This document shows, piece after piece, positions 42,301 through 45,300 of a DNA stretch of 64,000 nt. Where the stretch lies: positions 222,999 through 286,998 of the forward strand of contig JBNAUL010000002.1 in NCBI GenBank assembly GCA_049700835.1, read 5' to 3'. How positions within the stretch are numbered: position 1 is the first letter of the stretch; every line of letters starts with the position of its first letter. Origin of the DNA: Candidatus Woesearchaeota archaeon (GTDB lineage: Archaea > Nanobdellota > Nanobdellia > Woesearchaeales > WAPY01). Made by a program: the position numbers.

Positions 42301-45300
42301 TGATTCTGAAATGAAATACGAACTAATGTGCAACTACGGAAACCACACAATACAGGGGTATTATTTTGTAGAAGGTAATTACAAGCAGAAATTCTACATT
42401 GAGAATACAACATTCTTTATTCAAAAAGTCATTCCAAAAGAACTTCCGATATGGCTTTGGTTTGTTCTTCTGATGCTACTCATAATATTTTTCATAGCAG
42501 TGCTTAAGAGAGAAGAGTTATAAAAAACAAAAAAATGAAGATCCAAGAGATAAAAAACCTTCTAAAAGAGGAATTGTATAACATCCTGGAAAGCGAGGGG
42601 ATAGAGGAATTAAGACCTGCTCAAGAAAAAGCAATAAGGGCAGGGCTTCTTAATGGAAAAAACCTTCTTATCTGCACTCCGACTGCTTCTGGGAAAACTT
42701 TAATAGCAGAGATAGCAATGGTAAATACGATACTCTCAAATGGAGGCAAGGCTGTTTACATTTCCCCGTTAAAAGCCCTTGCAAATGAAAAGTACAATGA
42801 TTTTAGAAGAAAATACTCAAACTTGATGCGGATTGCATTATCCATTGGAGATTTTGATTCTGCTGACGCGTATTTGATGGACTACGATTTGATAATCATA
42901 ACTTCTGAAAAACTTGACTCTTTGATAAGGCACAATGCTCCGTGGATTCCAATGATAAGGGTTGTAATAATTGATGAAGTACACCTGCTAAATGATTTTG
43001 AAAGAGGCCCTACCCTTGAAATCTTGATAACTCTTTTGAAACAAGTTTTGAAGAAAGTTCAGATAATTGCGCTCTCAGCAACAATAGGCAATCCAAAAGT
43101 ATTGGCAGAGTGGTTGAATGCTGATTTGATTATAGACGATTGGAGACCTGTAAAATTGAAAAAAGGAGTTTTACACAATTGGGAAATAAAATTTTTTGAA
43201 TAGTTCTATTTTCACGGCAACTTATCAGGGGGAATCTTCTTTACAATCTTTTCAACAATTTCTCCTGCATCATACTTTTCTTCATGCAAAACGCTGTTGA
43301 AGAACCTACAAACGTTGAAAACATCTCTTGAAAGGTAATTCAAAGAATCTTGGTTTCTCATAGGAGTTGAATGGCTCAAATCAATAAAATACGGCTTTCC
43401 TTCATAGTTTAGTATGTTGAACTCAGAGAGATCTCCATGAACAAAACCATGAACCGCAAACTTCTCTATGTTTTTGAAAACTTGCTTTGCAAAGTTTTCT
43501 ACATTCTCAGGCAGAGAGTCCTTAATACTTGGAGCAGGGTTTTCCTTCCCTATGAATTCCATTATCAAAATGTTCTTTTGGAATGCGATTGGCTTTGGAG
43601 CGTTTATTCTTGCTCTTTGCGCGTTTATTAGATTTCTGAACTCCCTCTGACACCAAGCAAATATAACCTTCCTGCGCTTGTTAGCCAAGCCCTTAAATCT
43701 TGGGTCTCCTCTTATGTAAAAAAACATTCTCTTGAAATCAGCTGTCTGAAGCCTGTAAATTTTCACTATAACCTTCTCGTTGCTTTTTGTAAGCGCAAAA
43801 AAGATATTTGACTCTTTGCCAACAGCAATGTTTCCTTTTAGCTCCTCAAAAATTCCCTTGTTTATCAAAATTTTTAAATTGTTGATTGTAAAATTGTCAA
43901 AAACATCCTGCCAAACCTCAAATTTTTCTTTCCATTTAGGCATAACAATGAATGTTTTTTGAAAGTTTAAAAATTTTTTTAAAGAAAAAAATTAAAAAAA
44001 ATTTAAAATAGAAAAGTTTAAAAACAACACTAACTTATTTTTCAAAACGATAATCATTTAAAAGTAGAAATTAAATTCAAGATATCAAATTAATATTAAA
44101 TAATTAAATAATCTAAATAATCAATATTGGATTTAATCAGTTGAATACTGACAAACAAACGAGCAGGTGATAGAATGCAAAAGAGCATGAGGGAAATTGT
44201 CAATGAACTTTCTTATGAGGATCTTTTAAAATTCAAGAAAGATCTTGAAGAGAATTCTTTTCAGATAAAAAAACTCGTCGAACAGAGGATTAGGCAGGAG
44301 ATTGAAAAAAATTCTCATGTTTGCGCCAACTGCGGAAGAAAGATGAATCCCTACGAGGATGATGAACTTTGCTTAATCTTTGGGCCTCCTGATTTCAAAA
44401 GAAGGGCTTATTTCTGTGGGATTGACTGCCTTGAGTATTTTCTTGCAGAACTGAAGAAGATTGAAGTCAAAAAACTAAAAATTCCTAAAATTTAAAAAGC
44501 AGAGCAAAATACCAGTAATTTATGGAGAAATACTTAAATGAAATAAGAGTGCCCAAGGAAAGAGTAGCAGTTGTCATTGGAAAGAAGGGTGAGACAAAAG
44601 AAAAGATTGAGAAAGAACTCAACTGCAAACTAAGAATTGATTCTGAAACAGGGCTTGTAACAATAAATTCAAAGGATGCAATAATGCTCTACAAGGCGTC
44701 AGAGATAATAAAGGCAATAGCCCGTGGTTTCAGTCCTGAGAATGCTTTTCTCCTTCTGAAAACAGATTATGTTCTTGAAATAATTTCTTTAAAAGAATAC
44801 ATAAAATCAAGCAATAGGATGAAGATAGTGCTTGGAAGGATAATAGGAAGCAATGGAAAGTCAAAGAGGACTATTGAAGAACTAACAAACACTGTAATAT
44901 CTGTCTATGGAAAAACTGTTTCAATAATAGGGGAGACATTGAATGTCATCAATGCAAGAAGAGCTGTAACAATGCTTATAAACGGGGCGCAGCACACAAG
45001 GGTTTTTAGTTTTCTAAGCAAAATTGCTGAAGAGGAAAAGAAGATAAGCATGCTTGGTTATGAGGAAAGGGAGGATGTTGTTTATAAAAAGATTGACGAG
45101 CAATTGAATAAAAACAAGAAAGAAAATAAAAAAGAGAGAAAGACAACTGAAAACAATAAAAATAAAAACAAGAAATTAGAGACAAAAGAGTAAAACCTAA
45201 AGAGTAAAGCAGAAAGACAAAAACTGGCTGAATTTTTAAAAAATATGAGATATTTAGAGCAGGAGAAAAAGAAGAAAAAAGCGCAAAAAACAAGCAATGA

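Follow-up and report, generated by a model that had tools for sequence, protein, structure and literature searches.

Hel308/HELQ is a conserved genome-stability helicase, whose two RecA domains normally belong to one chain and hydrolyse ATP between them. The locus described here raises the question of what becomes of this motor when the gene stops shortly after the first RecA domain. It lies in the window, a stretch of 64,000 nucleotides (G000:C2:222999-286998) from a Candidatus Woesearchaeota archaeon with a small, reduced genome (G000; 1.07 Mb, 98.7% complete). According to the initial annotation, Hel308 is encoded in this archaeon by two separate genes, located 42 kb apart on opposite strands, whose products abut exactly on the Hel308 model. 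Both the open reading frames and the model matches agree with this description: the distance is 41.7 kb, and the N piece covers model positions 1-217 of 739, while the C piece covers positions 215-714.

The N piece (hel308-N; C2:265533-266201 on the contig; Table 1) matches the family model NF002654/PRK02362 with an E-value of 7.2e-86 (289 bits) and bears a Pfam DEAD domain (PF00270) at residues 27-185. It aligns to residues 8-210 of Hjm from P. furiosus and to residues 1-219 of Hel308 from A. fulgidus, and matches the structure 2ZJ2 with an E-value of 4.6e-69. Folded alone, it yields a predicted model with a pLDDT of 89, which Foldseek aligns to Hjm/Hel308 over 220-222 columns with a TMq of 0.89-0.91. 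As in other Hel308/Hjm proteins (NF002654, NF040935), its RecA1 domain holds motifs Q, I, II (DExH), and III; Q30 of motif Q is invariant across 50 N pieces, like the residues of the other motifs given in Table 1.

The length and location initially proposed for this 222-residue piece stand, but its content is not restricted to RecA1, as it also includes the first β-hairpin of RecA2. This hairpin, whose strands comprise residues 210-214 and 217-221 of the predicted model, is part of a C-terminal tail that aligns to Hjm residues 198-217 approximately. Within the tail, W203, R204, P205, and L208 are invariant among the 50 N pieces, and V206, G211, and F220 are at least 90% conserved, with conservation past RecA1 extending to residue 220 of 222. 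The protein ends 1-12 residues after the hairpin in all 11 N pieces examined (that of G000 and those of 10 other genomes of the order). No hel308 sequence is present downstream of the N piece, and the convergent gene for a RIO1-type kinase ends 8 bases past its stop codon.

Table 1. Coordinates of the two hel308 genes and of the features around the break (window positions unless a contig or L001 is named).
Feature	Position	Strand	Basis or remarks
hel308-N gene, stop included	42535..43203	+	ATG-start ORF, 222 aa
Motif I (Walker A, PTASGKT type), residues 48-55	42676..42699	+	T48 P49 T50 S52 G53 K54 T55 invariant in 50 N pieces
Motif II (DEVH), residues 147-150	42973..42984	+	D147 E148 H150 invariant in 50 N pieces
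Motif III (SAT), residues 181-183	43075..43083	+	S181 A182 T183 invariant in 50 N pieces
C-terminal tail, residues 203-222 (WRP motif and β-hairpin)	43141..43200	+	Hairpin belongs to domain 2 (RecA2) in intact Hel308/Hjm
Stop codon closing the N piece at the fission point	43201..43203	+	ORF; X1 contig over 42913-43892 with 0 differences
RIO1-type kinase gene, convergent neighbour, not part of the system	43212..43943	-	ORF; NF041310 Rio1, E 7.4e-53
hel308-C gene, outside the window	G000:C2:307908-309518 = L001:1456..3069	-	537 aa from TTG

The C piece (hel308-C) was initially described as a protein of 537 residues with RecA2, a winged helix, and domain 4. These domains are present, but they are followed by domain 5 (HhH), and the start codon is uncertain. 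The gene lacks an ATG start, and its translation may begin either at the TTG that gives 537 residues or at a GTG; the form of 523 residues in the public database is consistent with an in-frame GTG located 14 codons downstream of the TTG. The longer form matches NF002654 with an E-value of 1.6e-136 (454 bits), and the shorter one matches model positions 218-713 with an E-value of 1.1e-135. Pfam assigns to the C piece Helicase_C, HTH_61 (the winged helix, residues 203-277), Helicase_dom4_arc (331-455), and HHH_5 (462-513), so that the succession of domains after the motor (winged helix, ratchet domain 4, HhH domain 5) is that of Hel308/Hjm. The match to 2ZJ2 has an E-value of 1.1e-94, and the model predicted for this piece alone (pLDDT 85, TMq 0.70) is aligned by Foldseek to 2ZJ8, 2VA8, and 2P6R over 484-496 columns, with the first 16 residues as coil. 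The RecA2 motifs of Hel308/Hjm—IV, IVa (F/YHHAGL type, a name taken from PMC10484726), V, and VI—are all found and are invariant among 50 C pieces, R160 and R163 included; the invariant positions comprise F35, F91, H92, H93, G95, L96, T119-A130, Q156, and G159-P164.

Taken together, the pieces account for all five domains and every motif of the protein, from position 1 of the model to roughly position 714 (of 739), with two chains in place of the single polypeptide of Hel308/Hjm (NF002654, NF040935). The genome of G000 contains four DEAD and four Helicase_C matches; six of them occur as pairs, one of each kind, in frames of 756, 899, and 636 aa. Only those of the hel308 N and C pieces are unpaired, which argues against a chance pairing.

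A division of this kind could be regarded as a broken gene with decaying remnants, or as a mis-assembly, all the more so in such a reduced genome and with single pieces that score 289 and 454 bits against a curated cut-off of 887. This explanation is hardly credible. The cut-off has no discriminating power here, since none of the 121 intact genes of the class exceeds it (the best reaches 790.7 bits), and the catalytic motifs are invariant in both pieces. Contigs of the X1 run read across both ends of the N gene, start and stop, with 0 differences; this run possibly stems from the very sample that yielded the window. X1 is one of two runs listed as containing this stretch, both of DNA and labelled hot springs metagenome, with no RNA run among them; the other one, X2, covers parts of it, the stop codon not being among them.

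The distribution of the pieces weighs further against decay or mis-assembly. In a sample of 81 genomes of the order, each from a different genus, at least 74 hold an N-type piece in the family-model search and at least 70 a near-complete C-type piece, with 3 further partial ones (counts from 150 of the 227 matches listed). The Hel308 model finds a match in 80 of these 81 genomes, none of them intact among the matches listed, and no match of intact strength (E <= 1e-150) exists in a larger sample of 401 genomes from 258 genera, with sizes of 0.6-2.7 Mb and 281 of them at least 90% complete. The recurrence of the same break, in open frames, across these genera allows an assembly artefact to be discounted, and bears out the earlier claim that the split is common to nearly all genomes of the order. 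Public databases hold thousands of proteins of the same lengths: 3836 N-like proteins are found at E <= 1e-30, with 117 of the best 120 measuring 219-227 aa, and the best 120 C-like proteins all measure 502-578 aa in a search that allowed lengths up to 940 aa. All 10 other N pieces inspected begin with ATG and end at a stop codon, and 9 of 10 other C pieces begin with ATG, 9-17 residues ahead of a conserved helix, the remaining one with GTG. In two genomes, G079 and G072, the C piece is enlarged at motif V by an insert of about 500 aa; that of G079, to which testing was confined, is identified by Pfam as an in-frame intein containing a LAGLIDADG domain. Inteins must be spliced out of a translated protein, and the one of G079 was counted in favour of the two-gene reading.

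With regard to its position, the cut is located not at the border between RecA1 and RecA2, but about 20 residues inside RecA2, which in Hjm comprises residues 198-399 (domain 2; PMC2636818). In G171, the nearest intact relative, the same hairpin is followed by a short strand and a helix, and the chain is continuous through the site. In G000, the hairpin stays on the N side of the cut and the short strand and helix on the C side; the retention of both junction elements points to a clean cut. No added docking module is conserved at the new ends: neither the tails of the N pieces nor the heads of the C pieces keep a constant length or charge. The use of intact G171 as a tblastn query against eight C loci revealed no relic of the N part upstream of the C piece in any of them, nothing being found before positions 218-241; these loci included the four where the family search had stretched the C match to positions 179-210 across stop codons. 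There is thus no sign at these eight loci of a duplication followed by reciprocal decay.

The halves of the DNA polymerase from N. equitans are joined by protein trans-splicing, and split-intein genes resemble the present case in that two distant genes encode one protein in the same phylum. A comparable joining of the Hel308 products into one polypeptide—whether through a split intein or through trans-splicing of RNA, as for the tRNA halves of Nanoarchaeum—is nevertheless highly improbable. Split genes and trans-spliced tRNA halves are indeed known in the phylum (PMC3655853, PMC3491384; Table 1 of the former lists the polymerase only as split), and inteins exist in hel308 genes of this class. 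However, these inteins sit at motif V, and no intein fragments are found at the new ends, where there is no room for them: the N piece ends 7 residues past the last residue aligned to Hjm, and the C pieces start only 9-17 residues before the conserved helix. Pfam detects no intein domain in either piece, although the same library recovers the motif V intein of G079 and G120, and no conserved Cys, Ser, or Thr is present at the new start of the C pieces. In addition, the N pieces are closed by a stop codon, and the C pieces opened by a start codon, of their own. A C/D box sRNA occurs at a gene border in N. equitans (PMC3491384), and an Rfam search of L001 for such an element at the gene border returned only a tRNA.

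In other orders of the class, the gene is in one piece, as initially claimed. Matches at E <= 1e-40 are found in 60 of 107 genomes from these orders, and in 57 of the 60 a single frame runs through model position ~218; the remaining three (G119, G175, and G112) are cut by contig ends, so that the break site cannot be judged in them. The 48 whole-length genes have E-values of 1e-182 to 1e-238. Apparent breaks in G107, G087, and G139, caused by contig ends, and in G178, caused by a run of N, were dismissed, as all four genes cross the site. On the other hand, Hel308 is split right after motif VI in G173, G200, and G202, which belong to another order. Consequently, the break site is specific to the order, but the fission of Hel308 as such, for which the same specificity had been claimed, is not.

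Whether the halves are neighbours in other genomes had been left open by the initial annotation. Among the matches listed, they are non-adjacent in all 6 genomes where both lie on one contig, at distances of 29-332 kb and always on opposite strands. No conserved operon or common neighbourhood was found for them, and no neighbour is shared by most N or C loci among the 11 compared: a pair of genes for FtsY and prefoldin adjoins the N piece in 5 of the 11 (not in G000), and a PRPP-synthetase-like gene follows the C piece in 4. At 12 loci of other orders, the neighbours of intact hel308 offer no explanation of the break. An ancestral inverted segment was considered and rejected, as the N-to-C intervals of G000, G016, G021, and G034 share, besides the halves, only 1-5 scattered genes, which is about the chance expectation. 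Similarly, trmI, located 1.1 kb upstream of the N piece in G000 and directly after intact hel308 at 4 of the 12 loci from other orders, was not used, since the chance of such a coincidence is roughly 15% (22 loci).

The lack of adjacency or of a common operon might suggest that the halves have diverged, the N piece acting as a stand-alone ATPase or with another partner and the C piece as an ATP-independent DNA-binding or annealing protein. This would fit G010 (97% complete), which shows an N piece only, and the strand annealing reported for Hel308 besides unwinding in the abstracts of PMC10484726 and PMC13623763. Such a divergence is unlikely, however. The invariance of motifs I-III in 50 N pieces and of motifs IV and V and the motif VI arginines in 50 C pieces would be difficult to account for if the halves did not share an ATPase site, and the N tail, a portion of RecA2, is itself conserved. 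Moreover, G000 has no further orphan RecA half that could serve as an alternative partner, and most genomes hold both halves. G006 (96% complete) shows neither piece, only a paralog in a frame of 668 aa; together with G010, it indicates that the pair either can be dispensed with or is sometimes missing from the genome assembly.

The explanation preferred here, with fairly high confidence, is that a single ancestral hel308 was divided in two at the base of the order (probably Woesearchaeales) or close to it, that both halves have been kept since, and that their products form a two-subunit Hel308 without a covalent link. The N gene would provide the ATP-binding RecA1 (motifs Q, I, II, and III) together with the initial hairpin of RecA2. 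From the C gene (523 or 537 aa) would come the remainder of RecA2 (motifs IV, IVa, V, and VI) and the three domains behind it: winged helix, ratchet domain 4, and HhH domain 5. Both proteins would be translated separately and most likely assemble into one helicase. At its ATPase site, motifs I/II of the N subunit are predicted to face the motif VI arginines of the C subunit, whose RecA2 fold may be completed in trans by the tail hairpin of the N subunit. An arginine finger is useful only beside a RecA1 that holds ATP, and the invariance of motifs I-III in one piece and IV-VI in the other suggests selection on a shared active site. On the opposite side count the lack of an ATG start in the C gene of G000, the incomplete sets of G010 and G006, and the absence of both a conserved docking module at the new ends and a common operon or neighbourhood. 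A single origin of the cut is compatible with the phylogeny of the C pieces without being proven by it: 11 of them cluster with intact G171 with weak support, and their monophyly is not rejected by the AU test (p 0.376).

A more daring and rather doubtful proposal would see in this pair a domain-swapped obligate heterodimer, to which the ATP-binding subunit contributes the first RecA2 hairpin in trans, the cut being no neutral accident in a linker. Hel308 would have been split independently at least twice in the class, each time near an edge of RecA2 (past the first hairpin throughout the order, and past motif VI in the three genomes of another order), and a two-piece motor might be favoured in reduced archaea, for example by allowing its activity to be set by the supply of one subunit.

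The split Hel308 adds a further case to the split genes described from nanoarchaea. Hel308/Hjm is a Ski2-like SF2 DNA helicase, and the pair shares five domains, motifs, and fold with the proteins from P. furiosus (2ZJ2, 2ZJ5, and 2ZJ8), A. fulgidus (2P6R), and S. solfataricus (2VA8), although all the solved or characterised Hel308s compared are single chains and not, as here, encoded by two unlinked genes with the break some 20 residues inside domain 2. Like the split genes of Nanoarchaeota, members of the same phylum-level lineage, among which genes are those for Lhr (NEQ003-409 / Nst 172-239), also an SF2 helicase, and reverse gyrase (PMC3655853), hel308 is single elsewhere and is represented here by two separated genes with a site shared by the lineage. 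According to passages of the same paper, such genes require post-translational assembly, and are proposed to result from random fragmentation followed by the retention of those cuts that allow reconstitution in trans. Unlike the nanoarchaeal split "large helicase-related protein", however, the gene affected is Hel308 rather than Lhr, the order is of mesophile type, and the cut is fixed throughout it (401 genomes, 258 genera), whereas in passages of that source the Lhr cuts differ between two nanoarchaea. No report of a Hel308 fission was found in the passages of the literature searched, and Hel308 is absent from the split-gene lists found there.

Annotated automatically, the halves appear under the names "DEAD/DEAH box helicase" and "helicase-related protein" or "hypothetical protein", and surveys that require at least 60% coverage of a family profile, as described in passages of PMC10946056, drop such pieces. 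Owing to these names and filters, Woesearchaeales may wrongly seem to lack Hel308. The common break site, in turn, provides a simple marker character for the order. Hel308 is also used as a nanopore motor, and a natural two-piece version could be employed to study the communication between RecA1 and RecA2 and to design switchable helicases. If both products assemble as proposed, the persistence of a helicase cut within RecA2 throughout so large and ancient an order of archaea would mean that the covalent linkage of the motor halves is dispensable.

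In the genome under study (G000; 1.07 Mb in 4 contigs, 98.7% complete), the Hel308 helicase is represented by an N piece and a C piece, the latter being the remainder of the protein. The N piece, encoded inside the window (C2:222999-286998), is matched by the Hel308 equivalog model NF002654 (PRK02362; 739 positions) over positions 1–217 (E 7.2e-86) and by three further Hel308 models, which hit the same N-terminal region, and its residues 27–185 form a Pfam DEAD domain. The C piece covers model positions 215–714 (E 1.6e-136) and holds Helicase_C, winged helix (HTH_61), archaeal helicase domain 4, and HhH domains. 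Thus, as the initial annotation had described, the pieces abut on the model, and 41.7 kb separates their genes, which are encoded on opposite strands. The C piece has no ATG start; its public database entry (P0121) has 523 aa, which fits an in-frame GTG 14 codons downstream of the TTG. Contigs of the DNA sequencing run X1 span window positions 41935–42927 and 42913–43892 with 0 differences, bridging both the start and the stop of the N gene, although they do not count as independent support, since the window itself may derive from that run.

Only one further family match, a weak one (E 4.4e-17) in an 899-aa frame, is found in the whole genome. Pfam detects four DEAD and four Helicase_C matches, three of each paired within frames of 756, 899, and 636 aa. 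This leaves one of each unpaired, namely those of the N and C pieces, which are each other's sole possible partner in G000.

Coordinates of the two hel308 genes and of other features mentioned in the text (L-numbers denote excised loci with their own coordinates)
Feature	Genome	Coordinates	Strand	Remark
N piece ORF	G000	window 42535..43203	+	222 aa, ATG
C piece gene	G000	L001:1456..3069	-	537 aa from TTG
C piece frame matching the model	G000	C2:307950-309476	-	
ORF ahead of N piece	G000	window 41969-42523	+	184 aa
GCD14/TrmI-type tRNA methyltransferase gene	G000	window 40708-41442	-	
tRNA gene	G000	L001:3428-3547	-	outside window
ftsY and prefoldin subunit genes	G016	L004:4771-7522		
ftsY and prefoldin subunit genes	G025, G021, G017, G066	L006, L012, L020, L022		
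C piece with motif V insert	G079	L054:995-4066	-	
C piece with motif V insert	G072	L055		
Intact gene with motif V insert	G120	L056:435-4133	+	
Intact gene with motif V insert	G165	C6		
Ski2-like helicase	G043	L057:375-2312	-	
Halves cut after motif VI	G173	L050, L051 (contig C4)	opposite	394 + 366 aa
Halves cut after motif VI	G200	L076:636-1751, 4197-5234	same	371 + 345 aa
Halves cut after motif VI	G202	L077:210-1352, L078:604-1638		380 + 344 aa

The same break is found throughout the order of G000. Among 81 genomes, one per genus, a search at E <= 1e-20 returned a family match in 80 and a full-length one in none. Counted on the 150 listed matches out of 227, at least 74 genomes hold an N-type match (from position 1–22 to 174–249; frames of 197–335 aa), and at least 70 a near-complete C-type match (from 179–250 to about 675–738, including those starting at 340 where an intein intervenes), with partial ones in three more. 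A renewed search of five genomes with no C piece listed revealed C fragments in three (G011, G057, G062), two of them at contig starts, the N piece alone in G010 (97% complete), and neither piece in G006 (96% complete), where nothing but a paralog (668-aa frame) was hit. On a wider scale, a screen of 401 genomes of the order, drawn from 258 genera and including 281 with completeness of 90% or more, returned no match at E <= 1e-150; by comparison, 48 whole-length genes from other orders score 1e-182 to 1e-238, and the strongest C piece 2.3e-146. These counts bear out the earlier claim that nearly all sampled genomes of the order share the split. In the protein database, the N piece retrieves 3836 proteins of 122–389 aa at E <= 1e-30 (219–227 aa in 117 of the 120 listed), and the best 120 C-like matches all have 502–578 aa, though up to 940 aa were eligible. 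The halves are named 'DEAD/DEAH box helicase', and 'helicase-related protein' or 'hypothetical protein'; from their sources, Candidatus Woesearchaeota or Nanoarchaeota archaea, we infer that the order is Woesearchaeales. An additional Ski2-like helicase, intact and in frames of about 640–690 aa, occurs in some genomes of the order (G043, G036, G028, G185, G179, G031, G006) but not in G000; the G043 copy, the one tested, bears a DSHCT domain and hits the Hel308 model with E about 1e-60.

Regarding the cut itself, residues 10–215 of the N piece align with residues 8–210 of Hjm, the structurally solved Hel308 of P. furiosus, and the piece aligns to residues 1–219 of A. fulgidus Hel308, whereas the alignment of the C piece to Hjm begins at its residue 34 (Hjm residue 228). 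Domain 2 of Hjm comprises residues 198–399, following domain 1 at 1–197 (PMC2636818), so that the N piece carries about 20 residues of domain 2. Its description as a RecA1 piece is therefore correct as to RecA1 but incomplete. This additional part comprises the WRP motif and a beta-hairpin (predicted strands 210–214 and 217–221), and conservation extends to residue 220 of 222 in an alignment of 50 sequences. In intact relatives, such as that of G171, the hairpin is followed by a short strand and the helix preceding motif IV; in G000, the N piece ends with the hairpin and the C piece opens with the short strand and helix, with no sequence lost or duplicated compared to G171. In ten other genomes of the order, N pieces of 220–234 aa all start with ATG, and C pieces of 484–529 aa start with ATG in nine, 9–17 residues ahead of the helix, and with GTG in one. 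Neither length nor charge is constant at the new ends, and therefore no dedicated docking module has evolved. Modelled alone, the N piece (pLDDT 89) superposes onto Hjm/Hel308 over 220–222 columns (TMq 0.89–0.91), and the C piece (pLDDT 85), whose first 16 residues are coil, over 484–496 columns (TMq 0.70).

Across 50 aligned N pieces there is no variation in motifs Q, I, II (DExH), and III, nor is there any across 50 C pieces in motifs IV, IVa, V, and VI, both arginines included. This invariance and the common break in genomes of different genera make it scarcely credible that the pieces are products of decay or artefact; the split is neither. A joining of both products, either post-transcriptionally or post-translationally, is highly improbable, as no intein halves are found in either piece by Pfam, which does detect the intein at motif V. 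Inserts of about 500 aa at this motif occur in the C pieces of G079 and G072 as well as in intact genes of other orders (G120, G165); the two tested, from G079 and G120, are inteins with a LAGLIDADG domain. Independent functions of the halves are unlikely, if less so than joining. On sequence grounds, namely the separate start and stop of both genes, their co-retention, the invariant halves of the ATPase site, and the lack of intein halves, the N and C proteins most probably form a non-covalent Hel308, a judgement that applies to the proposed mechanism as a whole. Two separately encoded proteins would assemble without a covalent bond, the hairpin of the N tail would insert into the C subunit's RecA2 fold, and motifs I and II of the N subunit would hold ATP, with motif VI of the C subunit sensing it.

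In other orders of the class, the gene, where found, is mostly intact, as previously claimed. In a class sample of 121 genomes (14 in the order, 107 outside), 60 of the 107 yield a match at E <= 1e-40, the other 47 do not, and model position ~218 is crossed in one frame in 57 of the 60. These 57 include the apparent halves of G107, G087, and G139, which are contig-end cuts, and G178, where a run of N breaks the frame yet the site is read through; in the other three (G119, G175, G112), contig ends cut the gene. Within the genomes searched, the break at ~218 is confined to the order. The fission is thus order-specific as to this site, but not as to Hel308 fission as such. In the order of G173, where 28 of 39 genomes have a Hel308 match, mostly intact, three genomes have hel308 severed immediately past motif VI (GRAGRP). 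Its two parts lie 25 kb apart in G173, are separated by 2.4 kb with four unrelated genes in G200, and occupy two 4-kb contigs in G202; the latter may be mis-binned, because intact genomes bear the same genus code.

Among the matches listed, both halves share a contig in six genomes (G000, G016, G021, G022, G025, G034), 29–332 kb apart and on opposite strands in all six, a pattern consistent with an inversion that had one of its breakpoints within hel308, though the sample is small and kin are not independent. The intervals have almost no genes in common among the genomes compared, neighbours are not conserved across the order, and no relic of the N part precedes the C piece at the 8 loci tested; therefore, the splitting event cannot be reconstructed. 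In a phylogeny built from the C regions, the 11 split sequences cluster with that of G171, the nearest intact protein, with weak support. Forcing the split sequences into a group of their own lowers the log-likelihood by 3.6 units (AU p 0.376), which does not reject a single origin, the more economical interpretation given one shared break site. In the order of G171, matches at E <= 1e-40 occur in 3 of 31 genomes (two intact genes and one paralog), and the other 28, many >95% complete, have none.

As for the neighbourhoods, the N piece has the TrmI-type gene 1.1 kb upstream, and a homologue of that gene lies convergently 0–1.7 kb past the 3' end of intact hel308 at 4 of 12 loci of other orders, a proximity that may be due to chance. 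The 184-aa ORF has no NCBIfam match and bears a hydrophobic stretch in its C-terminal part; it stops 11 bases short of the N-piece start codon, and the two may be co-transcribed. Convergent ftsY (SRP54-type GTPase) and prefoldin subunit genes follow the N piece at 5 of 11 loci of the order, three of them, and one other locus, with a small DUF4870 gene; G000 holds a RIO1 kinase gene instead. About 360 bases upstream of its C piece, the anticodon loop of a tRNA gene (Rfam tRNA, 42.7 bits; not detected by ARAGORN) is interrupted by a 50-base insert.

No report of a split Hel308 was found in the accessible passages of the literature searched, supplements excluded, which could hold one. Those of PMC8407392, PMC7414124, PMC8301817, and the 2026 Hel308/HELQ review (PMC13623763) contain nothing on it, and the word helicase is absent from those of PMC11237513 and the 2026 Nanobdellota preprint. 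PMC10946056 demanded at least 60% COG coverage and removed 53 partial sequences, and the preprint limited its split-gene screen to adjacent same-strand ORFs. The closest precedent is that of the split protein genes of Nanoarchaeota, including a 'large helicase-related protein' and reverse gyrase (PMC3655853, Table 1). Gene splitting of this kind is therefore already known, and Hel308 represents a new example, distinctive in being fixed across a very large order and in that the cut falls inside a RecA domain.
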